Made by a program: the position numbers and the translations under genes
Assembly (NCBI GenBank): GCA_026418035.1
Contig: JAOACC010000066.1
Location: 1-47,641 of the forward strand
Length of the DNA: 47,641 nt
Reading direction: 5' to 3'
Source: a bacterium
GTDB lineage: Bacteria; DUMJ01
Notes under the pieces: model-generated
Told to the model about the DNA's origin: nothing
Database searches by the model: none
The model's input: only the letters and a program-made list of their open reading frames with translations
Shown here: positions 23,259 through 42,470 of the stretch, one piece after another
How positions within the stretch are numbered: position 1 is the stretch's first letter
How the letters are laid out: each line of letters starts with the position of its first letter

Positions 23259-23286
23259 TTGACAAAGGGAAGTTTCTTTGTATAAT
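23259..23286 (+). promoter_or_regulatory. Promoter for tRNA-Leu
   Basis: TTGACA (23259-23264), 16-nt spacer, TATAAT (23281-23286). The tRNA starts 16 nt downstream. Confidence 0.65.
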
Positions 23287-23301
23287 AAATATCAGAAAGT
23301 T

Positions 23302-23390
23302 GCCGGAATGGCGGAATAGGTAGACGCTGCGGACTTAAAATCCGCTGAGCTTTTTAGCTCATGCCGGTTCGACCCCGGCTTCCGGCACCA
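23302..23390 (+). tRNA. tRNA-Leu (anticodon TAA), long variable arm, CCA encoded
   Basis: GCCGGAATGGCGGAATAGGTAGACGCTGCGGACTTAAAATCCGCTGAGCTTTTTAGCTCATGCCGGTTCGACCCCGGCTTCCGGCACCA. Anticodon loop is CTTAAAA. Confidence 0.9.
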
Positions 23391-24375
23391 AGTTATTATA
23401 AACCAGTCTAAGTCTGGGGTTATTTGTAATTCCTGGAATTCTTCCTCTCTTAGCTATCGGTCTGCCCTTTACTACTTTTAGGTCCAAAGTCATATCTATA
23501 GGAGAAGCTCCAGAGATATAGCTACCAACTCCAAATACATCTGCTCCAGCTTCAGAAAGAGCCCTTATTCTGGCAGGATTCAAACCACCAGAGACAAATA
23601 TCTTTACATAATCAAAACCCTCTTGATTAAGTCTAGATCTTACCTCTCTAACTAGCTCTGGAGTTACTCCTCCTCTTTCTCCAGGAGTATCAAGTCTTAT
23701 TCCATATAAAGACCTCCTAAATTCTCTTGCCACCCTTATAGCTTCTTCTGCCTCATCTTTAAATGTATCAACTAAAACAACCAAAGGAATATCTGGATGA
23801 GCCTTATGAAAGGCTCTAGCTGCTTCAACTGTATCACCAATAATTAATATCAATGCATGAGGCATAGTTCCAGATGGGATTATACCCACTAACTCTGCTC
23901 CAAGTATAGAACTTACCCCGTCAACTCCTCCTATTATGGCTGACCTATCCATTACAGAGGCTACTGCTGGATGTACATGTCTGGCACCAAAGGATAACAC
24001 TGGTTTCCCATTACTAGCCTCTTTACACTCTCTAGCTGCTGTCACCCACCCAGTCGAAGATGCCAAAATACCAAGTATAGCAGTTTCATATATACCAAAT
24101 TCTCCATAAGGGCCTTCAATACGCATTATAGTCTCTTTTTCTTCTATATACTCCCCCTCTTCGAGAGAATAAATTCTAACCCTTTTACCCTCTAAAAGAT
24201 TTAATACCTCTTTAACTCCACCTAGATATCCACTCTTCCTCGGAAAGATTTCTCCAACGACAGGAGTGTTAAGCGCACCTATAGAACTTAAAACCTTATA
24301 AGTTCTTTCAAAATATATATCTGCAGTCTTTCCACTTATAATCTCTTCCTCAGAAGCAGAAAATAACTTTTTCAT
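23359..24375 (-). CDS. Nicotinate phosphoribosyltransferase-family (type II PRTase) protein
   Basis: 338 aa. Family call by eye (TADIYF..., GTMPHALI, RLDTPGERGG). The last ~10 codons are antisense to tRNA-Leu. Confidence 0.7.
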   Translation of the reverse strand: MKKLFSASEEEIISGKTADIYFERTYKVLSSIGALNTPVVGEIFPRKSGYLGGVKEVLNLLEGKRVRIYSLEEGEYIEEKETIMRIEGPYGEFGIYETAILGILASSTGWVTAARECKEASNGKPVLSFGARHVHPAVASVMDRSAIIGGVDGVSSILGAELVGIIPSGTMPHALILIIGDTVEAARAFHKAHPDIPLVVLVDTFKDEAEEAIRVAREFRRSLYGIRLDTPGERGGVTPELVREVRSRLNQEGFDYVKIFVSGGLNPARIRALSEAGADVFGVGSYISGASPIDMTLDLKVVKGRPIAKRGRIPGITNNPRLRLVYNNLVPEAGVEPA

Positions 24376-24911
24376 CTATGATACCCCTCCAAAGCCTTGG
24401 ATATTAAACTCATACCTCTCTTTACTCCTTCTTGTATAGCCCTACTAGATATAGTAGCACCAGTAATAAATTTTACAGTATTTATATTATCACTCGATTT
24501 ATTTATATACTGTTCCAAATAATTATCTTTTGTAGCTTTCTCTCCTAGCCCTGGAGTTTCATTATGAGATAGTACCCTTACACCTGTTATTCTCTTATAC
24601 TTATCTAACCCTATAATTAAATCTATATTTCCACCATATCCCCTTACAGTAACCTTTGCAGTCCCCCCAATCACATCCCCGTTGCTTAACCCTAAATATA
24701 CCGTATAACCATCAACAGCAACCTCTTTGAACTCTATGGCTTGAGGCAATACCTCTTTTTGTAAAGAAATCTGAGCTCTTATCTGCTGTTCTTTTATAAT
24801 TGGAGTAGTAAGCTGATAAAAATACCCCAGAGTACCAGCAGAAAATGCGCATATAAAAGCTAATAAAAACGCTCTTTTAATATGTTCTTTCATCATCCTC
24901 TCCTCTACCAT
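24372..24911 (-). CDS. Membrane-anchored FMN-binding domain protein (RnfG/NqrC-like)
   Basis: 179 aa with an N-terminal transmembrane helix, SHNETPGLG, and the flavinylation-type motif TGATISS. Confidence 0.75.
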   Translation of the reverse strand: MVEERMMKEHIKRAFLLAFICAFSAGTLGYFYQLTTPIIKEQQIRAQISLQKEVLPQAIEFKEVAVDGYTVYLGLSNGDVIGGTAKVTVRGYGGNIDLIIGLDKYKRITGVRVLSHNETPGLGEKATKDNYLEQYINKSSDNINTVKFITGATISSRAIQEGVKRGMSLISKALEGYHR

Positions 24912-25630
24912 CCATAATAATATGGTCTATATCGTCTTCTAAATCTAATACCTACTATAAAACCAGTTACAAATCCGCCTATATGTGCCCACCAGGCAAC
25001 TCCACCAGTATTCATGTATGTTCTTATTGCCAGGCTAGCAATACCATTCAAGGTCTGAGAAATAAACCAGAAACCCAAGAAAAGAAAAGCCGGAATAGCA
25101 GCTACATGAAGGAAAAAACCAAATGGTAATAAGGTCATAATCCTAGATTCAGGGAATATTATAAAATAAGCTCCTAATACACCTGAAATTGCTCCACTAG
25201 CTCCTATCGTAGGAATAGAAGAAGACAAATTTGTTAAGATATGGGCAAAACTCGAGGTAATACCGCAGAAAAGATAAAAAAATAGATATGTAAAGTGTCC
25301 CATTCTGTCCTCTACATTATCTCCAAATATCCAAAGATATAACATATTACTGAGTATATGATACCATCCACCATGCAGAAATATAGCTGTAAAGAAAGGA
25401 ATAACAATATTCCTTATAGATACAGAACCCAAATTAGCAATATCATGAATAAACCTCGCCGGAATTATACCGTATTGAATTATAAATCTTTCTAGTTCTT
25501 CTCCAAGAGAAAGCTCATAGAAAAAGGCTATAAAGTTAGCTATTATAAGTAACACGTTAACTATAGGAAATCTCCTTGAAGGAATGCTATCCCTCAGTGG
25601 AATCATCTTCAATACCACCTCCCTCTTCAA
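24905..25630 (-). CDS. Rhomboid-family intramembrane serine protease
   Basis: 241 aa with HILSN (HxxxN), the catalytic-Ser motif GASGAISG and a distal AHIGG histidine. The start may be the internal MIPLRD at 25606. Confidence 0.85.
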   Translation of the reverse strand: MKREVVLKMIPLRDSIPSRRFPIVNVLLIIANFIAFFYELSLGEELERFIIQYGIIPARFIHDIANLGSVSIRNIVIPFFTAIFLHGGWYHILSNMLYLWIFGDNVEDRMGHFTYLFFYLFCGITSSFAHILTNLSSSIPTIGASGAISGVLGAYFIIFPESRIMTLLPFGFFLHVAAIPAFLFLGFWFISQTLNGIASLAIRTYMNTGGVAWWAHIGGFVTGFIVGIRFRRRYRPYYYGW

Positions 25631-25844
25631 ATTCTCTCCTTGCTAACAACTCTATCGCCTCTTCTAAAGAACCTTTAGAAATCCAAATCTCTACTGGCCC
25701 ACCCACACCCATAATGGGACCATCACCATAAGGGACAGTAGAAGATTTTAAAAAAACATATATTCCGTTACTCTCCAAATAACTTTTTATTATTTCGGCT
25801 TTAGTCTTATTAGAAACCCTCTTCAGTACTATCAACTCTTCCAT
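25587..25844 (-). CDS. DUF2007-like small protein (putative signal-transducing fold)
   Basis: 85 aa. The pattern LKRVSNKTKAEIIKSYLESNGIYVFLK resembles DUF2007. Overlaps both neighbouring genes. Confidence 0.5.
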   Translation of the reverse strand: MEELIVLKRVSNKTKAEIIKSYLESNGIYVFLKSSTVPYGDGPIMGVGGPVEIWISKGSLEEAIELLARREFEEGGGIEDDSTEG

Positions 25845-26247
25845 CTAATATTTCTAAAATCTTCTCCATAGCTAGATTTATCAATTTATTCAGCGAGGAA
25901 GTGGTTTCTTCAACCAATAAAAATCTGGGGTGAGAAACAGGGATCAGTACTTTTATAGCCTTACTTGTAGCTACAGCCTCTGCTATTCCGGTAGTAATTT
26001 CACCCATCATACTGTTAGGTATAACTATTCCCCAAGGTCCTATAATAATATCTGCATCTAAAGAAGAAACCTTTATAGCATTTTCTCCCGTAGCACCTCT
26101 ATTAGCACCTGCCCTAAGCATACTACCAGTAGCAAATGAATTAGTCCCTACTGCTATTATCTCTATATCTGGTATGCCCTTTAATCTAGTTATAATCTCA
26201 GAACCTAATCCTCCACCTAAACCGTCTATTACAAGTATCCGCTTCAT
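25810..26247 (-). CDS. DUF3842-family protein
   Basis: 145 aa. N-terminus MKRILVIDGLGGGLGSEI is typical of DUF3842. Confidence 0.6.
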   Translation of the reverse strand: MKRILVIDGLGGGLGSEIITRLKGIPDIEIIAVGTNSFATGSMLRAGANRGATGENAIKVSSLDADIIIGPWGIVIPNSMMGEITTGIAEAVATSKAIKVLIPVSHPRFLLVEETTSSLNKLINLAMEKILEILDGRVDSTEEGF

Positions 26248-26249
26248 AT

Positions 26250-26867
26250 CTATAAGGAAATATTTGCTCCTACTTGGAATATGATTCCTTCATGGTAAGT
26301 CGCTGTAATATTTAAAAATGATAATAGATTTATATTGAGGGCTATACCAGCCTTCTCAGATTTATAAAAGCCTAACAAATCTATACTATCAGTAAGCTTG
26401 AATTCCAAAGCTCCAAATATACCCTCGTAGATTCCACTCCCTACACCTATATGACCTTTCAAATTACCCAGCGCCTTAGAAAGCGCAACATAGAAAGATG
26501 TCCCCCCTATAGCATTATTAACATCAAAAAGCCCACCTATAGATATACTAGGTAAGAGAGGCTTTTCCTCTATGACATTCCATTTTGCATGGAATATAGG
26601 TATAAAATCTGAAGATGAAGAAAGAGAAAATCCAGTAGCCCCTATCTCTATGCCAACACCAAGGCCTAACGTTATTGGAATTCTTGTCAAGGTATCACTT
26701 CCATAAAAGCCAACGTTAGGACCTATCGCGACACCAAAATTCAACACATATGCCGTTGGTATCTCTGATATACCGGTTGGTCCCCAATTAGACAAAGTAC
26801 TAGCATTTGCAAAACCATAGAAAGACATCAAAAATACAATCGTAACTAAAAATACCTTTATCCTCAT
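26250..26867 (-). CDS. Secreted Gly/Ser-rich beta-strand protein, possibly an outer-membrane beta-barrel (YjbH-like N-terminal motif)
   Basis: Start reassigned to the ATG at 26867, which has GGAGG 7 nt upstream and an ATGA overlap with the maturase stop. Signal peptide MRIKVFLVTIVFLMSFYGFANA, then alternating hydrophobic pattern. Confidence 0.55.
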   Translation of the reverse strand: MRIKVFLVTIVFLMSFYGFANASTLSNWGPTGISEIPTAYVLNFGVAIGPNVGFYGSDTLTRIPITLGLGVGIEIGATGFSLSSSSDFIPIFHAKWNVIEEKPLLPSISIGGLFDVNNAIGGTSFYVALSKALGNLKGHIGVGSGIYEGIFGALEFKLTDSIDLLGFYKSEKAGIALNINLLSFLNITATYHEGIIFQVGANISL

Positions 26868-28162
26868 ACCTTTACCTCCATTCTTTTTGCCCTTAGCCAT
26901 AGGGCATATTCTATCCTTAATTTTTGTATCTCACAGCCAATCTCATATGGCTCTGTAATATTCCTATTCATATTGAAATTATTAGCTAGACATCCTCCTC
27001 CACAGAGATACCTAGTCCAGCAATCCTTACATAAAGGTTTACTGTCTATATTATTTAAGATTTTAAATCTATCTTTTAATTCTTTATTAAGGTTTTTCTC
27101 ATAAATATTGCCCATCATAAATTGTCTATATCCAACAAACTGATGGCAGGGATATATTTCTCCAGTGGGGGTTACCGCCATATACTCTATTCCGGCACCA
27201 CAACCTCGAGTCAGTCTTGGCAAACAAGCTCCCTCTTCTAAAGGTAATTCAAAGTGAAAGAATTTTACATCGCTTTTTAAACATTCCTCAGCTATCTTTT
27301 TATATTCTTCTCTCAAGATAGGGATATGCTCTCTCTTTATTGAGAGATTCTCGTCAGTTGTCACTACAGGTTCAAGGGATATGTATCTAAAACCTAAATC
27401 GATTAAATCTTTAAATGTCTCAGAGAAGGTTATTGTCTTTGCAGTATACGTACCTCTTATATAATATCCACCATACTCTCTCCTCCTAGCTAATTCTATA
27501 GCATTAGGAAGTATGTATTTAAAAGAGTCATTACCATTAATTAAATGTCTATGAATATTATGGACCTTATCTCCTCCATCAAGGCTCAAAACTACACTTA
27601 TTTCCAGTTCATCTAGGAGGTTTAAAACCTTCTCTGTTAGTAAAATACCATTAGTGGTAAGTGTTATTCTCAGATTCTTATTATATTCAACTGCTCTCTT
27701 TTTTCCATATATACTTACATCTCTAACAGCATCTAAATTTAATAAAGGTTCTCCACCAAAGAAGTCTATCTCTATGTTTTTTGTATCTTTAGAAGCTTCA
27801 ATTAAAAAATCTATCGCCCTATATGCCGTTTCCAAATCCATCATAGATCTACTAGAGCTGAGGTTATGACTTACAAAGCAATAATCACAAACCATATTAC
27901 AAGAATGGGAAACATTTAGGCAGAGAGACTTTAAAGTTAAATCATCATAAACTTGAATATTAAAAGAGTCATATGGAGTTAATACTTCTTCTATCTCTTC
28001 ATAAACATCTTCAGGGATGCAAGGGTCTTTACTCCCCTTAAGAAGGGATTCAACAGCCTTAGCCCCCTCTTCATCTAGCTGATAGAGGGAACCAAGACTG
28101 TTAAACAAAAAATATTCACCCTCGACAGAGAAAATATGCCAATCTCTCTTTACCAAGTCCAT
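26864..28162 (-). CDS. Radical SAM/SPASM peptide maturase, SCIFF-maturase type (thioether-forming)
   Basis: 432 aa. CxxxCxxC motif (CNMVCDYC) and a C-terminal SPASM Cys cluster (CKDCWTRYLCGGGC). Lies immediately downstream of, and overlaps, a SCIFF-like peptide gene. Confidence 0.85.
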   Translation of the reverse strand: MDLVKRDWHIFSVEGEYFLFNSLGSLYQLDEEGAKAVESLLKGSKDPCIPEDVYEEIEEVLTPYDSFNIQVYDDLTLKSLCLNVSHSCNMVCDYCFVSHNLSSSRSMMDLETAYRAIDFLIEASKDTKNIEIDFFGGEPLLNLDAVRDVSIYGKKRAVEYNKNLRITLTTNGILLTEKVLNLLDELEISVVLSLDGGDKVHNIHRHLINGNDSFKYILPNAIELARRREYGGYYIRGTYTAKTITFSETFKDLIDLGFRYISLEPVVTTDENLSIKREHIPILREEYKKIAEECLKSDVKFFHFELPLEEGACLPRLTRGCGAGIEYMAVTPTGEIYPCHQFVGYRQFMMGNIYEKNLNKELKDRFKILNNIDSKPLCKDCWTRYLCGGGCLANNFNMNRNITEPYEIGCEIQKLRIEYALWLRAKRMEVKV

Positions 28163-28317
28163 TTCCCCAATGGCTTCTTTACCTCGCAGACTAAATTCCC
28201 AACCGTCATACTAGTCTTACAGGCAGACCTACAAGGGGTCTGACATTCCTGACAATTCTTCTTTGCCTCTTTTTTATCTATAGAAGATTCTACTATTGCC
28301 TTAATATGTCTTCCCAT
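28150..28317 (-). CDS. SCIFF-type ranthipeptide precursor, 55 aa, not in the ORF track
   Basis: MGRHIKAIVESSIDKKEAKKNCQECQTPCRSACKTSMTVGNLVCEVKKPLGKWTW. GGAGG (28325-28329) lies 7 nt upstream of the ATG at 28317. The stop at 28150-28152 lies inside the first codons of the maturase. The core matches the SCIFF consensus CxECQTSCQSACKTSCTVxN. Confidence 0.8.
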   Translation of the reverse strand: MGRHIKAIVESSIDKKEAKKNCQECQTPCRSACKTSMTVGNLVCEVKKPLGKWTW

Positions 28318-28350
28318 ACTGTTACCTCCATTATCCCTATAATTTTTCTT

Positions 28351-28359
28351 ATTATATCA
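28351..28359 (-). promoter_or_regulatory. Extended -10 element upstream of the SCIFF gene
   Basis: Minus strand reads TGATATAAT (TGnTATAAT) about 34 nt upstream of the ATG. The -35 element is weak. Confidence 0.4.
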
Positions 28360-28435
28360 TAAAAAGTCCACCTAATGATTAAAAATCTCTTCACTTTTCT
28401 AGAATTTTATAGTAATATATGTTTGGAGGTTCTAT

Positions 28436-28885
28436 ATGCAAGTTACCACATTTACAGGAGAGGGTGCTACTTATAGATTCTATCAGGGTTTTGATGCTAT
28501 TACTGGAGTTTATGCACACGAAGCATTAAATATCAGAGTATTCAAGAGATATGCATTAAACGCTAATAAAGAAATTGTAAACAGCGAAATAAAAATCAAG
28601 CTCGCCATAGATCCAAAGACAAAAAGGTTAATTGTCGTTGGAGGCGAATCTAGGGCAGAGTTTAAAAATAAAAATTACACAAAGATTACAGAACTATTAT
28701 CTGATGATACCGAAGAGATAAAGAAAGAAATTAGAAAATTACTAGAAGAAGAAAGGCTATTAAAAACTGTAGAAAAGTATGATAATCCCTTTATAGGCGA
28801 AAGATTAGAAGAGATAAGGAGGAAAATAAATATCCTAAAGATAGAAGCCTTAACGAAGGGTGTTATGGTAGATCTTTTTGCCTAG
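28436..28885 (+). CDS. Hypothetical protein with no recognisable family
   Basis: 149 aa. GGAGG 7 nt upstream and candidate promoter TTCACT-17-TAATAT at 28390-28418. The C-terminal half is charged and coiled-coil-like. Confidence 0.55.
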   Translation: MQVTTFTGEGATYRFYQGFDAITGVYAHEALNIRVFKRYALNANKEIVNSEIKIKLAIDPKTKRLIVVGGESRAEFKNKNYTKITELLSDDTEEIKKEIRKLLEEERLLKTVEKYDNPFIGERLEEIRRKINILKIEALTKGVMVDLFA

Positions 28886-31415
28886 CTGTTACAAGTTTAT
28901 TCCATTCTTCTTCAGAAATAGGCCTATCAAAACTTCTTAATTGACTTACCTTAAACCCGTGTTTTTTTGCTAATTCTCTAAAGTAGTTAATTCCTTCTAT
29001 TGTAAGGTCACTTCCTAGACTCATATCTGTATAATTTTTCTCTAACGCTAACATCATCGTCTCTGCCATACAGGCATAGGCTAATCCTCTCTCAAATCCA
29101 AAGTACCAACCCAAAGAGGGTTTACCAGGTATCTCTACGACTCCGCCATCGATTACTAAAACATCTGGCCTTAGCTCCTTTATTAAGGGGCTCACATTTG
29201 GCGGCCTAGATATATCGCATATAATAGCTCCAAATTTAATATAACTAGGTTCTATTAACTCTCTAGGACTATTAGTAGCGGTAACAATTATATCAGAAGA
29301 AGATACAGCTGATAAAAGATTTGTAGTAATTGTTATATAACCTTCTTTTTCAAGTAGACTTAATATTTTCTCCCAACTATCCGTATCATCGTAAGAAGGT
29401 AGAATAAGAGTTGATAGATACTCACCGATAGTTTTATTACTTGGTCTCCATCCAGATTCTAGACGTCTAGCGATATTTAGACACAGATCTATCCCAACCT
29501 TTCTCAACCTTCTAACACTAGACTTAGGATGAGAAGGATTTCCAACTAAGATTATTTTATGAATATCTTCGGATAAAAGTATCGCTAAAGCCCGCCCTAT
29601 AGACCCAGTTGCCCCTACAACACTAACAGTACTCTGACTTAGATCAATTTCTAATTTCGCCGAAGCTAGTTTTAAGGCATCTATGCTAGCAACTACAGTA
29701 TAGCTATTACCCGTAGTTAGAGGAACATACTTACCTTTAAGCAACGTCCCACCCCTAGTAATAACAGATGTATAAGCACCTAATCCAAGGATTTTTGCTC
29801 CTCTATCGACGGCAAGAGAAACGGCGGATTCAATTACCTTAATCACTTTATCCTGAGGAGTCTCTATCATCTGTCTTGCAGTATATGGAATATTAATAAA
29901 CTCACCATAAGCTGTAGCTCCATAGTCCGAATTTATTCTAACTTTCCCTATAACAAAAGGTTTTATTAAGTCTTTTCCGATCTCAGAGAAGACAGCTATC
30001 TTATCTCTAGGAAGCATTATAAGAGTTGGATCAAATTCAGAATAATTAGCGAGATCAATAGGGTGAACCAAAAAAGCAAATCGACCATCTTCTAAAGAAG
30101 GAGAAACATCTTCCCTAGGTTCTTTCTCGATAACATCTATGTTATAGAGAGAGAAATCTCCTTTACTTATATTAAGAATCGGACGTATAATTTCTGGGGT
30201 ATTCATTTCATCTAAAATATTAAAAACATCCTCAAGGGATTCAACAACTTTTTGGCATTCATCCCAGGTAGTTATAAAGGAAGGTTCTAACCTTATAACT
30301 TTATTATTCTTTAACGTGGGGGCTAATCTTATTTTCTTCTCGTTTAATAGATAACTAACAACTATTGGGACTAGATTCTCCTGCTCTGAGAGAACACTCA
30401 ATATGCTTTGAGGATAGTTTTTTCTATCCATATCTAACTCTATACCTAATAGATATCCTTTACCTCTAATATCTTTTATAAGAGTGGGGAATTTATCTTT
30501 TAGCCTTAATAACTCTCCAATTAATCTCTCCCCATTTTCTCTTATTCTCTTTATCAAACTCCTATCATCCCTAATTAAAATCTCTAAAACTTTATCAGCT
30601 ATTAAACATGCTATATTATTTCCTGCAAAAGTAGAGAAATTATTCAAGTCAAAGCCTTCCGGATAAAACTCTTCCCTAATTAGGCAGACTCCTATAGGAT
30701 ATATTCCTCCACCTAGTACTTTGCCAATAAGTAATATGTCTGGAATAAAGTCTTTTCCTTCACACAAGAAGAGAGACCCAGTTCTACCTAAGCCAGTTTG
30801 GATTTCGTCTAGGATAAACAAAATATTGTGTTTATGGCATAGCAATCTAACTTTAGACAGATAATCATCTGGGGGCAAAATTATACCACCTTCACCTTGA
30901 ATAGGCTCTACCATCAAGTCACCATAATGCTTAGCATTTTCTTCTAACTCTTCCTCCAGGGCTGTTATATCCCCATAAGGTATATATGTAAATCTTTCAT
31001 TCTGTATACCATGATAGCCACCCTTAGCGACTATCATTCTTTCCTTACCAGTCAATAGGGAAACTATCTTTGTAGCTATTTCAACTGCTTCTGTGCCAGA
31101 ATTGGCAAATACTACATACTTGAATCCTTCAGGAGCTAACTCAATTAGTCTTTCTGATACCTTCTCTTGATACTTAGATACAGAAGCTTGAACAATAGTA
31201 GGGATAGATTCCTTCTTTATCCTTTCCAAAACATCCCATATTTCAGGATAATTAAACCCAAATGGCAAAGCTCCAAAAGAGGATATAAAATCCAAATATT
31301 GGATACCACTTTCATCATAAAGATAGTTTCCTTCGCCTTTTACAAATACCTTGTCCAACCTTATAACTTCAAGCATCTTATTTAAATAAGGGTTAATATA
31401 CTTAGAGTTACTCAA
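28863..31415 (-). CDS. Fusion protein: class-III PLP aminotransferase (N-terminal) and acyl-ACP-reductase-like NAD(P)H thioester reductase (C-terminal)
   Basis: 850 aa with a TTG start. N-terminal domain has SGTEAVE, DEIQTGLGRTG and PLP-Lys GKVLGGG (K232). From about residue 445 it is collinear with cyanobacterial AAR: FAFLVHP, LGLGAYTSV, TTGNSYTV, VVGATGSIGRAL and catalytic-Cys context AYACMAETMMLALE (C782). Confidence 0.75.
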   Translation of the reverse strand: MSNSKYINPYLNKMLEVIRLDKVFVKGEGNYLYDESGIQYLDFISSFGALPFGFNYPEIWDVLERIKKESIPTIVQASVSKYQEKVSERLIELAPEGFKYVVFANSGTEAVEIATKIVSLLTGKERMIVAKGGYHGIQNERFTYIPYGDITALEEELEENAKHYGDLMVEPIQGEGGIILPPDDYLSKVRLLCHKHNILFILDEIQTGLGRTGSLFLCEGKDFIPDILLIGKVLGGGIYPIGVCLIREEFYPEGFDLNNFSTFAGNNIACLIADKVLEILIRDDRSLIKRIRENGERLIGELLRLKDKFPTLIKDIRGKGYLLGIELDMDRKNYPQSILSVLSEQENLVPIVVSYLLNEKKIRLAPTLKNNKVIRLEPSFITTWDECQKVVESLEDVFNILDEMNTPEIIRPILNISKGDFSLYNIDVIEKEPREDVSPSLEDGRFAFLVHPIDLANYSEFDPTLIMLPRDKIAVFSEIGKDLIKPFVIGKVRINSDYGATAYGEFINIPYTARQMIETPQDKVIKVIESAVSLAVDRGAKILGLGAYTSVITRGGTLLKGKYVPLTTGNSYTVVASIDALKLASAKLEIDLSQSTVSVVGATGSIGRALAILLSEDIHKIILVGNPSHPKSSVRRLRKVGIDLCLNIARRLESGWRPSNKTIGEYLSTLILPSYDDTDSWEKILSLLEKEGYITITTNLLSAVSSSDIIVTATNSPRELIEPSYIKFGAIICDISRPPNVSPLIKELRPDVLVIDGGVVEIPGKPSLGWYFGFERGLAYACMAETMMLALEKNYTDMSLGSDLTIEGINYFRELAKKHGFKVSQLRSFDRPISEEEWNKLVTARQKDLP

Positions 31416-39324: not shown

Positions 39325-41079
39325 TCACTTATGAAACATCTCTCTTATCTCTTGCCATGACTTACCACTTCTAGCTGCCTCTGCTATCAATGGCGCATTT
39401 ATTGCTTTTCCACCATATATGCCAAATTTAAAACTTTCGCAAAACTCTTGATTTACCGCTCCCCCACCACAAGCAAACGGGATATTTATTCCTTCTTCCT
39501 CTAGCCTCTTTGCTATTCTAGGAAAAGCAGACATAGTAGTAGTCATAAGGGCGCTTCCCGTAAGTAGACAAGGCTTATACTTCTTAACCGCCTCTACAAC
39601 TCTTTCTATAGGAACATCTACCCCAAGGTCTATAACTTCATAACCATGGGCTACCAATAATGCTTTAACTATATCTTTTCCTATTGTATGAATATCCCCT
39701 TCTGCAACATGCATAACAATCTTTCCTTTTTTCTCTATAGGTTTTCCCATATATTCTTCACACATCTTTATTCCTATCTGCATAGCATCCGCTGAAAGAA
39801 TAACCTGGGGAAGAAAATACTCTCCTTTATTCCAAAGTTCACTAACAACATTAATACCCTCTACCAATCCCTTATTTATAATCTCTATAGGATCATAAGT
39901 CTCTAAAGCCTTTTTTATTGCGTCTATGACCTTTTGAGTGTTTCCATTTATTACCGCTTCTCTCACTTCCTCTAAAACATCTTTAACAAGTCTTTCCTTA
40001 ACCTTCTCCTCTCCCTTGGATAAATCATATCTAACAAAGATCTGAAAATTACTTTTTCTTTTGTTAGGAATAGTATAAGATGGCTTGGACAAAGAAATCA
40101 TCTGTAATGCCTTAATATTTTCTATAGATGTCTCCAGAGCAAGACTACAACCTGGAGCTAAGAGATCTATACCACTTTCTAAAGCCTTATTTCCTGCCTT
40201 TACTATCTCATTGGCTGTACCTTGCAGTAATAGCCTTACCGGATCAAGATTACCAATTAGAGAGACCTTATCCTTTACTTGGGTTGCAGTAGAAAGGTCT
40301 AATTTGTGGTCTATACTTAGTGCATCCGCTCCACTGTCCGCCATATATTGAATTATAGGAGTTACGTTACCACATATATGTAAAACAGTAACAGCAGATT
40401 TTAATTCTTCGAAAAGCCTCTTATGATATGGTAGAATTAAATCTTTATATATCTTAGGGCTTATCATCTCTGTGCTTGCACTCATATCTTCTACGCATAT
40501 AATATCCGCTCCAGCATTAATTAGCGCCTTGCCATAGATTATTCCTAACTCTAGTGTTATATCAAGAAATCTCTTTAAAGATTGTGTTTCAGAAATAGAG
40601 GCAACTAAAATTTCATTTAATCCCAAAAGATATCCAGCCAAACTAAAAGGTCCTACAATGCCGGCTATAACAGGATATTCTTTCCCAATTTCTCTTGATA
40701 GCTTTTCTACTGCGGATATCACTATAGGAATTCTTCCTTTAGACAGAATATCACTTGGTAATGTAGGTAGAGAGTCTATCTTAAATGGATGGGTTTCCAC
40801 AGTGGGAAGACTATCATATGAGAATCTTATCTTACATCCAAGTGCTTCTGCTTCCACAGTCTGACAAAAGGGGACTCTTACATTATCAAAACCAAGCATT
40901 TCTATAGCAGAAAAAGCAAGTTTGGCCATTTTTTCTGGGCTGGTATGTGCATCTAAAAGACTAATATTAAGCTCTTTCAACTGTTCTTTTGTAATAGTCT
41001 GATTTACACATACTATAGGAACCCTGTCTAGTCTCTTAGAACCTAAAATTGCTGATAAAACCCTCTTCTTGGGAGTCAT
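39325..41079 (-). CDS. Fusion of an MtaA/URO-D-family methyltransferase domain and a corrinoid-binding (MtaC-like) domain, CmuA-like architecture
   Basis: 584 aa. N-terminal half has zinc motifs VLHICGN (HxC) and LAPGCSL. C-terminal half has a B12-binding cap plus a Rossmann domain with DIHTIG (DxHxxG), SALMTTT and CGGGAV. Confidence 0.8.
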   Translation of the reverse strand: MTPKKRVLSAILGSKRLDRVPIVCVNQTITKEQLKELNISLLDAHTSPEKMAKLAFSAIEMLGFDNVRVPFCQTVEAEALGCKIRFSYDSLPTVETHPFKIDSLPTLPSDILSKGRIPIVISAVEKLSREIGKEYPVIAGIVGPFSLAGYLLGLNEILVASISETQSLKRFLDITLELGIIYGKALINAGADIICVEDMSASTEMISPKIYKDLILPYHKRLFEELKSAVTVLHICGNVTPIIQYMADSGADALSIDHKLDLSTATQVKDKVSLIGNLDPVRLLLQGTANEIVKAGNKALESGIDLLAPGCSLALETSIENIKALQMISLSKPSYTIPNKRKSNFQIFVRYDLSKGEEKVKERLVKDVLEEVREAVINGNTQKVIDAIKKALETYDPIEIINKGLVEGINVVSELWNKGEYFLPQVILSADAMQIGIKMCEEYMGKPIEKKGKIVMHVAEGDIHTIGKDIVKALLVAHGYEVIDLGVDVPIERVVEAVKKYKPCLLTGSALMTTTMSAFPRIAKRLEEEGINIPFACGGGAVNQEFCESFKFGIYGGKAINAPLIAEAARSGKSWQEIREMFHK

Positions 41080-42470
41080 TATCTTCCCTCCAAACCATAA
41101 GAGTCTAGACGAAAATTAGAAATTAAGTTCTTATATTTTTTTATACAATCTATAAGAAAATTTTCTTCTGATTCAGGCAAATTGTCTATAACCTTTCCAC
41201 ATTCAGAGAAAACTTCCTTCTCCTTTTGAGATATCAACAAGATATTCTCTTTTATAGATTTTTCTAACTCCTCATAAGCCCTTCTAAGAGCAAAAAGAGC
41301 TCTCTCATAATAATTATTACCCTTTACAAGGCTTGAACCTATATTATAGGCAATCCGAGGAGAAATTACATAAGCTTGAGGGTCTCGAAGTTCATCTGAC
41401 TCAATAAATATATCTCTTAAGATTTTCTCATATCCTAGCTTTAAAGCTGAATTCATTTGCGATACATCATACCCCAAAATCTCAGTAAAAACTGCAGGGG
41501 TAGTTCCTCCAAACATTTCTCCATATTGAACAGCCTCATTACTCCATAAATCACATACAGCAGCAGAGATATTTCCCATAAGGTCTGAGTGTGCACAAGC
41601 ACAACTCTTTCCTTCCATAGAGATAGGGCATCCTGTAATTGCTTTTATAATAGGACCTTCATAGCCACAGTCTTTATCAGGACCTTTTGCTCCAACATCA
41701 AATGCCACTAAAGACCTAGCAGAACCTATTGCCCTTATTAGGGCAGAAAATATGTGAGATAATTCATTACTGGTAAACCCTCCAGCTAAAAACATGGCAG
41801 AATTCGAATGGGCGCAATCTGTATCCCCCCCAGGTATGATATTATATTCCTTAGCTATCATTACTATATCCTTCCAAAGATATTCCATATCAAGAGAACC
41901 TAAAATACCTATAGCAAATAGGCATCCAATTAAATCTTGTCTTGTTACTGCATAGTTAAAAACTTCTTTCCCCCCTGTAGATTCGATAGAGAGAATATCT
42001 GCCCCTGATTCTGCAGATAACCTAAAACTTTCTATCATCTTATCATATTCTCTTGAACCTCTGTAACCATTCTCTGGCTTTCTGATATCTGCTACAGTGA
42101 CTCGAAGAGCGCTTTTAAGACCAAATTTATCATAGTACTCTTTTAACAACCACTTAGTCATATGAGTTATCTCTTTTCCCCAAGTTGGATTATCGGTAAG
42201 CTGAAATACATGCTCAAGCTCCAATACAATCGAAGGAAGTCCTATCTGAATACATCGATCTAAAATATCCTTTGTCATCCTTTCATATTCATGATAGATC
42301 GTATCGAAACTTCTCTCTGTTCCCGGACGAGGATGATATTTAATTTCAGGATGCACCATTCCTCCCCCTATTTCTAAATCAAACCCACATTTTACTGGAT
42401 ATATAGCTTTACCAAAAGTCATCTCCTCCCAAGAGGAGTAAGCCATACTTTTATACATTTTCTTATCCAC
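41079..42470 (-). CDS. mtaB: Methanol:corrinoid methyltransferase MtaB homologue
   Basis: 463 aa, collinear by eye with Methanosarcina MtaB (SMAY...EMTFG, YPVK.G.DLEIG). Contexts of the zinc ligands are conserved: SIESTGGKEVF, DTDCAHSN, GPDKDCGYEG. GTG start. Confidence 0.8.
   Translation of the reverse strand: MDKKMYKSMAYSSWEEMTFGKAIYPVKCGFDLEIGGGMVHPEIKYHPRPGTERSFDTIYHEYERMTKDILDRCIQIGLPSIVLELEHVFQLTDNPTWGKEITHMTKWLLKEYYDKFGLKSALRVTVADIRKPENGYRGSREYDKMIESFRLSAESGADILSIESTGGKEVFNYAVTRQDLIGCLFAIGILGSLDMEYLWKDIVMIAKEYNIIPGGDTDCAHSNSAMFLAGGFTSNELSHIFSALIRAIGSARSLVAFDVGAKGPDKDCGYEGPIIKAITGCPISMEGKSCACAHSDLMGNISAAVCDLWSNEAVQYGEMFGGTTPAVFTEILGYDVSQMNSALKLGYEKILRDIFIESDELRDPQAYVISPRIAYNIGSSLVKGNNYYERALFALRRAYEELEKSIKENILLISQKEKEVFSECGKVIDNLPESEENFLIDCIKKYKNLISNFRLDSYGLEGR

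Follow-up and report, generated by a model that had tools for sequence, protein, structure and literature searches.

The locus studied here raises the question of whether a short open reading frame (ORF) beside a radical S-adenosylmethionine (rSAM)/SPASM gene encodes a working peptide of the SCIFF (named for six cysteines within forty-five residues) family, and what is to be made of its missing fifth cysteine and its tryptophan-rich C-terminus. The window analysed, that is, the whole stretch of 47,641 nucleotides, is contig JAOACC010000066.1 of assembly GCA_026418035.1, and the ORF lies on its minus strand at 28150–28317. SCIFF peptides are among the most widespread families of RiPPs (peptides that are made by ribosomes and modified after translation), and their mature structure, the role of five of their six cysteines and their biology are open questions (PMC8326336). 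A first-pass annotation, made from the sequence alone, had described the ORF as a SCIFF-type precursor and its neighbor as the corresponding maturase. The analyses reported below make it probable that the two genes form a functional ranthipeptide system, consisting of a SCIFF precursor and a ScfB/CteB-type maturase, in an uncultured Dictyoglomota-affiliated anaerobe.

The precursor peptide and its maturase

Translation of the minus strand from 28317 to 28150 gave a 55-codon ORF encoding MGRHIKAIVESSIDKKEAKKNCQECQTPCRSACKTSMTVGNLVCEVKKPLGKWTW, residue for residue the peptide proposed in the first-pass annotation. It passed the curated cut-offs of both SCIFF hidden Markov models (HMMs), scoring 58 bits against a cut-off of 50 in TIGR03973 (E = 6.6e-16; residues 3–45 on positions 1–43 of the 43-position profile) and 59.4 bits against 27 in PF13165 (E = 3e-16), in agreement with the family assignment made previously. 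A PDB search returned no match for the peptide. The description of the peptide as unannotated holds only for the ORF track, since NCBI nr contains the identical peptide, placed on this contig, and explicit names are carried by sequences in its 90% cluster, such as MBC7321443.1 (six-cysteine peptide SCIFF [bacterium]) and HHV82010.1 (six-cysteine ranthipeptide SCIFF [Dictyoglomota bacterium]). The features of the locus are listed below, where group A denotes the window and its Dictyoglomota-like relatives, RRE is the RiPP recognition element and AF2 is AlphaFold.

28351–28359, minus strand: extended −10 element TGATATAAT, conserved across group A loci.
28325–28329, minus strand: Shine-Dalgarno (SD) sequence GGAGG, invariant in all six aligned group A loci.
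28255–28317, minus strand: leader, residues 1–21, MGRHIKAIVESSIDKKEAKKN; the HMM alignment begins at residue 3.
28186–28254, minus strand: core, residues 22–44, CQECQTPCRSACKTSMTVGNLVC, with Cys 22, 25, 29, 33 and 44, and Met37.
28207–28209, minus strand: codon of Met37, which replaces the canonical Cys36 in the core alignment.
28153–28185, minus strand: C-terminal tail EVKKPLGKWTW, residues 45–55, conserved in about 30 variants.
28150–28162, minus strand: 13-nt overlap ATGGACTTGGTAA, from the maturase start codon to the peptide stop codon, as read in the sequence.
26864–28162, minus strand: ScfB/CteB-type rSAM/SPASM maturase of 432 aa with a shortened N-terminal RRE-like domain, as assigned by HMM, PDB and AF2/Foldseek comparisons.

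The expression signals were found where they had been noted, with GGAGG at 28329–28325, 7 nt ahead of the ATG (28317–28315), and the extended −10 element at 28359–28351. Across six group A loci with diverging flanks, the sequence TTATG[A/T]TATAATA did not vary, and both the promoter and the SD sequence were constant although the gene upstream of the peptide varies among these loci. A consensus promoter scanner gave no call for the SCIFF promoter, which has no good −35 box; the promoter assignment is based on conservation across loci, not on the scanner. Promoter, SD sequence, ORF and overlap are all kept in relatives.

The peptide TAA (28152–28150) falls in codons 4–5 of the 432-aa maturase ORF, within the first five codons as previously reported. 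Since the maturase frame allows no start upstream of the ATG at 28162, the small ORF cannot be an untranslated leader of a longer maturase gene, which had been raised as a finding that would undo the proposal. The overlap ATGGAC[T/C]TGGTAA was invariant in group A, its sole variable base being silent in both frames. An overlap of identical length occurs in the six-Cys loci of Caldisericia (group C, below), while group B and canonical loci lack it, with gaps of about 50–90 nt in the canonical cases examined. The pairing of peptide and maturase was present in all relatives examined. The overlap that had been noted is thus real and conserved, and the translational coupling that had been read from it, for which the conserved overlap is the only ground, is a reasonable inference. 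Consensus RNA folding at the overlap gave only a 6-pair hairpin with negligible covariation.

The best family for the maturase was TIGR03974 (SCIFF maturase), with 413.1 bits, 12 below the cut-off of 425 (residues 71–425 on profile positions 90–450). The shortfall is marginal and, as judged from the alignment, traceable to the reduced N-terminal domain, which is about 13 + 9 residues (~22) shorter than in canonical enzymes. The previous designation as a CteB-type enzyme holds for the fold and the closest structure, and the family cut-off is the part on which it falls short. Among PDB sequences the best match was CteB (5WGG/5WHY), with E = 2e-103. The AF2 model, built like the cysteine count below on a 55-sequence maturase alignment, had a mean predicted local distance difference test score (pLDDT) of 89 and a predicted template modelling score (pTM) of 0.88. 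It superimposed on 5wgg_A in Foldseek with template modelling (TM) scores of 0.89/0.88 and a root-mean-square deviation (RMSD) of 2.8 Å over 452 columns at 38% identity, anSME being next with a TM score of 0.66. The CX3CX2C cysteines (C88, C92, C95) and those of the SPASM region (C313, C321, C339, C378, C381, C387, C391 and C410) were invariant and match those of CteB. The modelled N-terminal domain contains three strands (8–13, 16–21, 26–29) and two helices (31–42, 51–60), against three helices in a canonical RRE.

Other assignments of the maturase were rejected. The NF040492 (not_ScfB) orphan maturase model gave 402 bits against a cut-off of 855, and a SCIFF partner is present. The PapB and QhpD families gave 259 bits against 340 and 196 against 453, respectively. 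A darobactin/triceptide-type enzyme was discarded as well, the DynA and YhhB models matching the generic rSAM core only (92 bits against 445–450).

It must be noted that TIGR03974 scores were 409–413 in group A, 376 in group C, 502 in group B and 701 in Tissierella, so that the cut-off excludes all maturases of group A and of the Caldisericia group C despite their adjoining SCIFF peptides. Because the cut-off misses them, by about 12 bits, group A maturases are named only 'SPASM domain-containing protein' in NCBI, a generic SPASM label that leaves them under-annotated. No close relative of the maturase was found among species-representative genomes, the best being from Tissierella and a Bacillota metagenome-assembled genome (MAG), at 42–43%.

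The variant core and the aromatic tail among relatives

Scanned exhaustively with HMMER, 1.84 billion representatives yielded 406 SCIFF-like sequences, of which the best 150 were taken and 149 were parsed and tabulated; the counts given over 149 representatives refer to this set. Close variants were gathered by word-indexed search and cluster look-ups. In this way, about 30 distinct close peptide variants were found in Dictyoglomota-like MAGs, all with a five-Cys core followed by a tail of the E-V-K-K-P-L-G-K-W-T-W type. One cluster look-up was discarded: P0315, a 614-aa Ser/Thr-kinase-like protein in the 90% cluster of the 55-aa SCIFF P0005, is unrelated and its membership is a clustering artefact. 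The relatives that share the tail form three groups.

Group A, the window and Dictyoglomota-like MAGs: core C-QECQTPCRSAC[KR]TS[ML]TV[GS]NL[VI]C, with Met/Leu at the fifth position; tail E[VI][KR][KRH][PS][LVI]G[KR]WTW; 13-nt overlap with the maturase.
Group B, the P0007 cluster, L015, L017 and Caldisericum exile: core CR[EA]CQTPCKSACKTSVT[VI]GNQVC, with Val at the fifth position; tail EIKKP[IV]KRWIW; gap of 4–5 nt to the maturase and no overlap.
Group C, Caldisericia MAGs: core CRECQTPCKSACKTSCTVGNQHC, with Cys at the fifth position and all six Cys kept; tail ending in EWMF; 13-nt overlap with the maturase.

Core numbering was fixed on the Tissierella SCIFF (Cys21/24/28/32/36/43, Thr34/37). 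The window peptide has Cys22/25/29/33, Met37, Cys44 and Thr35/38, where Cys33, Thr35 and Thr38 equal CteA Cys32, Thr34 and Thr37, and of the canonical core cysteines the Cys36 equivalent alone has been lost. The replacement of the fifth canonical cysteine by methionine had been pointed out in the first-pass annotation, and its rarity is now apparent, the fifth position being Cys in 146 of the 149 representatives. The three exceptions were P0007 (Val; group B), P0040 (Ala) and P0053 (Leu). The last two have short tails, and the P0040 cluster includes Clostridium massiliamazoniense and Sarcina. The family is named after six cysteines and this peptide has five, with Met37 at the fifth position; by sequence it is a five-Cys variant of the SCIFF family and not a canonical member.

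The tail is similarly infrequent. The extension beyond the last Cys, formerly counted as 10 residues, has 11 (EVKKPLGKWTW), whereas the median tail in the 149 representatives is 6 residues and the lower quartile is 4. At 55 aa the peptide thus exceeds the usual SCIFF length of about 45–50 aa with a short C-terminus. An aromatic-x-aromatic C-terminus occurred, among the 149, only in groups A, B and C and in one apparent read-through ORF. P0070 has a canonical six-Cys core followed by ...EKRWMW and then about 20 residues; it may be another W-x-W-tailed lineage that lost its stop codon, or a sequencing or assembly error. Since group C combines the tail with six Cys, and Clostridium/Sarcina lack the fifth Cys without having the tail, the sequences show that losing the fifth Cys and gaining the tail are separable, independently evolved changes. 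In addition, MNTVKHVKIVAKKPFWNIDKAHDCRACQTPCKSACKTSVTVGNQVCEIKKPVKRWIW is encoded in Caldisericum exile AZM16c01, whose genome is complete (AP012051.1), and the 465-aa maturase there starts 5 nt past the peptide TAG. From these comparisons, the Met37 change and the tail are not errors but mark a conserved subfamily found in both Dictyoglomota-like and Caldisericota lineages. A literature search found no paper co-mentioning SCIFF with Caldisericum or Dictyoglomus, and the subfamily is annotated automatically but without a description in the literature searched.

Codon comparison of seven distinct DNA versions from group A located strong constraint in the core, although the counts show direction and not precise rates. 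The ratio of non-synonymous to synonymous differences (pN/pS) was 0.275 in the leader (codons 2–11; pS 0.585), the most variable segment of the peptide, and 0.025 in the 23 codons of the core (pS 0.78). The tail outside the overlap (EVKKPLG) had a pN/pS of 0.18 (pS 0.47), and the overlapped KWTW had a pN/pS of 0, with no non-synonymous change, a pS of 0.36 and a sole variable base (ACT/ACC). Synonymous changes in the group A tail (CCA/CCT/CCC/CCG, TTG/TTA/CTA, GGG/GGA, AAG/AAA) left the amino acids constant.

The close packing of the two genes offers another origin for the tail, namely that it is a by-product of gene compaction, conserved as the start and ribosome-binding region of the maturase. 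Indeed, an A-ending codon followed by TGG yields the maturase ATG, and in the maturase frame W-T-W-stop becomes M-D-L-V-K. In groups A and C the start of the maturase gene shares its sequence with the last four codons of the peptide, and the purine-rich G-K codons stand at the position expected for the maturase SD sequence. Likewise, the only invariant parts of the group C tail are the overlapped EWMF and the two residues that open it, with variation in between. What speaks against this origin is group B (L015, L017 and C. exile L020), in which there is no overlap and the tail is constrained like the core: its 11 tail codons had a pS of 0.85 and a pN of 0.024, with 13 synonymous and 2 non-synonymous differences, and the core had a pN of 0.025. 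In L015 and L017 the leftover in-frame ATG is dead (MDLVI*), and in C. exile AGG precedes the Trp codon, hence there is no ATG. Furthermore, the non-overlapped codons of group A vary synonymously, as expected of constraint at the protein and not the nucleotide level. A mere by-product is thus very unlikely. Because the group B tail, without overlap, is as constrained as the core, the codon patterns indicate that the tail is under peptide-level purifying selection, and the tail singled out in the first-pass annotation is genuine.

The same data bear on whether the locus might be a decaying SCIFF remnant, eroded after horizontal acquisition from Clostridia. Such decay could account for five Cys in place of six, for a tail arisen by read-through, and for a maturase that scores below the TIGR03974 cut-off, lacks about 22 residues of its N-terminal domain and bears in NCBI only the name 'SPASM domain-containing protein'. 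Nevertheless, the core pN/pS of 0.025 was obtained with saturated synonymous sites; the promoter, SD sequence and overlap are invariant; all Fe-S ligands of the maturase are invariant and its fold is confidently CteB-like; and the architecture is kept in about 30 versions of the peptide and in two lineages at the level of phylum. We regard decay as extremely improbable.

Proposed maturation and the role of the tail

The only demonstrated SCIFF thioether, that of Tte1186a and CteA, joins Cys32 (the fourth Cys) to Thr37 in vitro, and in vivo, by co-expression in Escherichia coli, Cys32 was joined instead to the C-gamma of Thr34 (PMC8326336, PMC8172795). The CteA leader adds a beta-strand when it binds the RRE, the open iron in auxiliary cluster I takes a substrate Cys as ligand, and the use of the remaining cysteines is an open question (PMC8326336, PMC8172795). 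The C-K-T-S-x-T segment, whose retention had been stressed in the first-pass annotation, keeps the equivalents of the CteA donor, Cys32, and of its two candidate acceptors, Thr34 and Thr37.

We propose the following course. The dedicated extended −10 promoter and the strong SD sequence would drive synthesis of the 55-aa precursor, and ribosomes ending the peptide would probably re-initiate at the maturase start, which lies within the peptide ORF, 13 nt from its end. By homology with CteA/CteB and Tte1186a/Tte1186, the leader would dock as a beta-strand on the reduced RRE-like domain, and the open iron in auxiliary cluster I would be engaged by Cys33, the fourth Cys. The 5′-deoxyadenosyl radical would then take hydrogen from the side chain of Thr35 or Thr38, giving as product one Cys33-S-C(gamma)-Thr thioether. 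By analogy, a CteB-like single Cys33-to-Thr thioether is the most likely modification.

Several points weigh against this reading of the locus and its chemistry. The position of the cross-link is taken by analogy, and the CteA acceptor is itself disputed between Thr34 and Thr37. The maturase is below its family cut-off and has one RRE helix fewer, so leader recognition could differ. RNA folding around the overlap gives no support to coupling (minimum free energy z = −1.17). The near-invariance of six Cys elsewhere in the family suggests that the other cysteines do something in vivo. Finally, the codon statistics come from few, phylogenetically non-independent sequences, with tail segments of 7–11 codons.

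As for the missing thiol, the sequences indicate that it is dispensable where Met, Leu or Val (two lineages) or Ala (some clostridia) replaces Cys36. The basic tail most likely belongs to the mature product, or serves its recognition, targeting or receptor interaction.

rSAM/SPASM enzymes cross-link Trp in W-x-W and K/R-W contexts. The W-x-W/W-x-F C-terminus could accordingly be a second modification site, served by the ScfB enzyme or by an unlinked one, which would make the peptide a hybrid ranthipeptide; candidate links are a Trp-derived ether or C–C cyclophane, as in darobactin and the triceptides, and a Lys/Arg-Trp bond, as in streptide and WprB products. An invariant aromatic-x-aromatic end, with Lys, Arg or Glu before it, sets three related groups apart from the rest of the 149 representatives, and selection on the C-terminal motif at the peptide level is strong, both of which fit a modified end. 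Against this, groups A, B and C have no second modifying enzyme in common, the maturase is orthologous to the thioether-forming CteB with no extra domain, and the resemblance is one of motif only. A second site is distinctly unlikely, and a role of the tail in interaction or targeting, as part of the mature peptide, is favoured over a second cross-link.

A broader and more speculative proposal, which we consider unlikely but worth stating, is that these peptides constitute a class of their own (SCIFF-W) in non-sporulating, non-Bacillota thermophiles, in which the tail would be either a second rSAM cross-link site of the ScfB orthologue or a bioactive or receptor-binding end, and would have taken over the structural role of the fifth Cys. 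If it were true, the catalysis of ScfB enzymes would extend beyond the one thioether observed to date, and what SCIFF peptides do would not depend on clostridial sporulation or on agr biology.

The subfamily is a natural experiment on which SCIFF cysteines matter. The fourth Cys and both candidate Thr are kept under extreme constraint while the fifth Cys is gone, which agrees with a single Cys32-Thr link, and replacement of the fifth Cys argues that Cys36 is not essential. With respect to biology, the statement in the first-pass annotation that the role of SCIFF peptides is unknown is partly outdated: as the work of Chen (2020) is cited in PMC8326336 and PMC8102284, clostridial SCIFFs are reported to have a regulatory, quorum-sensing-type role, and in the account of PMC8102284 their disruption raised agr and lowered sporulation gene expression. 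SCIFF also occurs outside Bacillota, in Caldisericota and Dictyoglomota-like lineages, which speaks against a role confined to clostridial biology.

Genomic setting and comparison with known systems

Downstream of the maturase, two further features were recorded on the same strand.

23359–26867, minus strand: six co-oriented, tightly packed genes, conserved in group A loci.
26250–26867, minus strand: gene whose start shares an ATGA with the stop of the maturase; its ~205-aa product carries a Sec-type signal peptide (MRIKVFLVTIVFLMSFYGFANA) and gave a faint YjbH-like match.

In order, the six genes encode the ~205-aa secreted protein, a DUF3842 protein, a DUF2007 protein, a rhomboid protease, an FMN_bind protein and a quinolinate phosphoribosyltransferase (QRPTase)-like protein, and they are probably co-transcribed with the pair as an eight-gene string. 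They were rejected as parts of the SCIFF system, being absent from the group B, Caldisericia and Tissierella loci, and are lineage-specific passengers; the secreted protein is conserved in group A loci only. Since none of the downstream genes accompanies the pair outside group A, the conserved functional unit is, on this comparison, peptide plus maturase.

The surroundings of the pair differ among relatives. In Tissierella pigra (L008, 2724–7369) the order is yajC-DUF3792-SCIFF-scfB-secDF, a protein-export setting unlike that of the window. In the group B locus L017 (2436–8582), nadB-nadA-nadC, a NiaR-like regulator and a gene of the metallo-beta-lactamase fold precede the SCIFF pair; the window operon ends with the QRPTase-like gene (23359–24375), and this recurrent proximity to NAD biosynthesis may be coincidence.

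A 5.1-kb block comprising a tRNA-Leu(UAA) and the eight-gene operon (~23272–28400) is inverted with respect to relatives L001, L007 and L014, and the flanking M50-peptidase, 149-aa and 850-aa genes keep their orientation around it. Inspection of the block borders gave no convincing inverted repeats, with only two ribosome-binding-site sequences pairing, and no inversion mechanism was found. The tRNA-Leu(UAA), on the plus strand in the 23259–23390 region, overlaps the 3′ end (23359) of the convergent QRPTase-like ORF by about 32 nt and is preceded by a perfect TTGACA-16-TATAAT promoter match at 23259–23286.

Elsewhere in the window, a methanol methyltransferase set lies at 39325–42470 (minus strand), with an MtaB of 463 aa scoring 626 bits, below the cut-off of 720, beside a 584-aa fusion of an MtaA-like methyltransferase (1–325) and an MtaC-like corrinoid protein (346–584). 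These genes suggest a methylotrophic capacity in this Dictyoglomota-like lineage. At 28863–31415 (minus strand) is the 850-aa gene product mentioned above, a class-III aminotransferase with a C-terminal NAD(P)-binding, shikimate-dehydrogenase-like domain, for which PigE was the best model with 449 against 850 bits. The closest named enolase to that of the window was from a 'Dictyoglomota bacterium' (88% identity), followed by Bacillota at about 72%. This single marker, together with the label on the peptide's cluster mates, weakly suggests a Dictyoglomota-like lineage.

Among characterized systems, the window is most directly comparable to CteA/CteB (thermocellin) of Clostridium (Acetivibrio) thermocellum (5WGG/5WHY). 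The CteA core C-x2-C-x3-C-x3-C-K-T-S-x-T-V-x-N-x2-C is homologous to that of the window, and the two enzymes share 38% identity, a TM score of 0.89, a common CX3CX2C and SPASM Cys set and, putatively in the window enzyme, an N-terminal peptide-binding domain. They differ in that CteA has Cys36 where the window has Met, the post-Cys tail is 2–7 residues canonically and 11 ending in W-T-W here, the window RRE-like domain is about 22 residues shorter, and the host is not Clostridium. Tte1186a/Tte1186 of Caldanaerobacter subterraneus belong to the same SCIFF/ScfB family, and their Cys32-Thr37 thioether formed in vitro corresponds to window Cys33 and Thr38; Tte1186a, considered from the literature only and not by sequence comparison, has six Cys and no aromatic tail, unlike the window peptide. 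Freyrasin PapA/PapB (Paenibacillus polymyxa) and QhpD are also rSAM/SPASM systems forming non-alpha thioethers, and the six C-x3-D motifs of PapA are absent from the window peptide.

The C. exile locus (AP012051.1; L020, 2822–4398, with the peptide at 2822–2995) is like the window in its five-Cys core with a hydrophobic residue (here Val) at the fifth position, its tail (EIKKPVKRWIW), its CQTPC signature and its two-gene unit. It differs in the junction (TAG, a 5-nt gap and ATG), in a leader that contains KKPFWNI and in phylum. Its 465-aa maturase, whose N-terminal domain is of full length, also scores above the threshold for naming as a SCIFF maturase. Given that C. exile is cultured and has the five-Cys and tail architecture, the questions raised by the window peptide are experimentally approachable.

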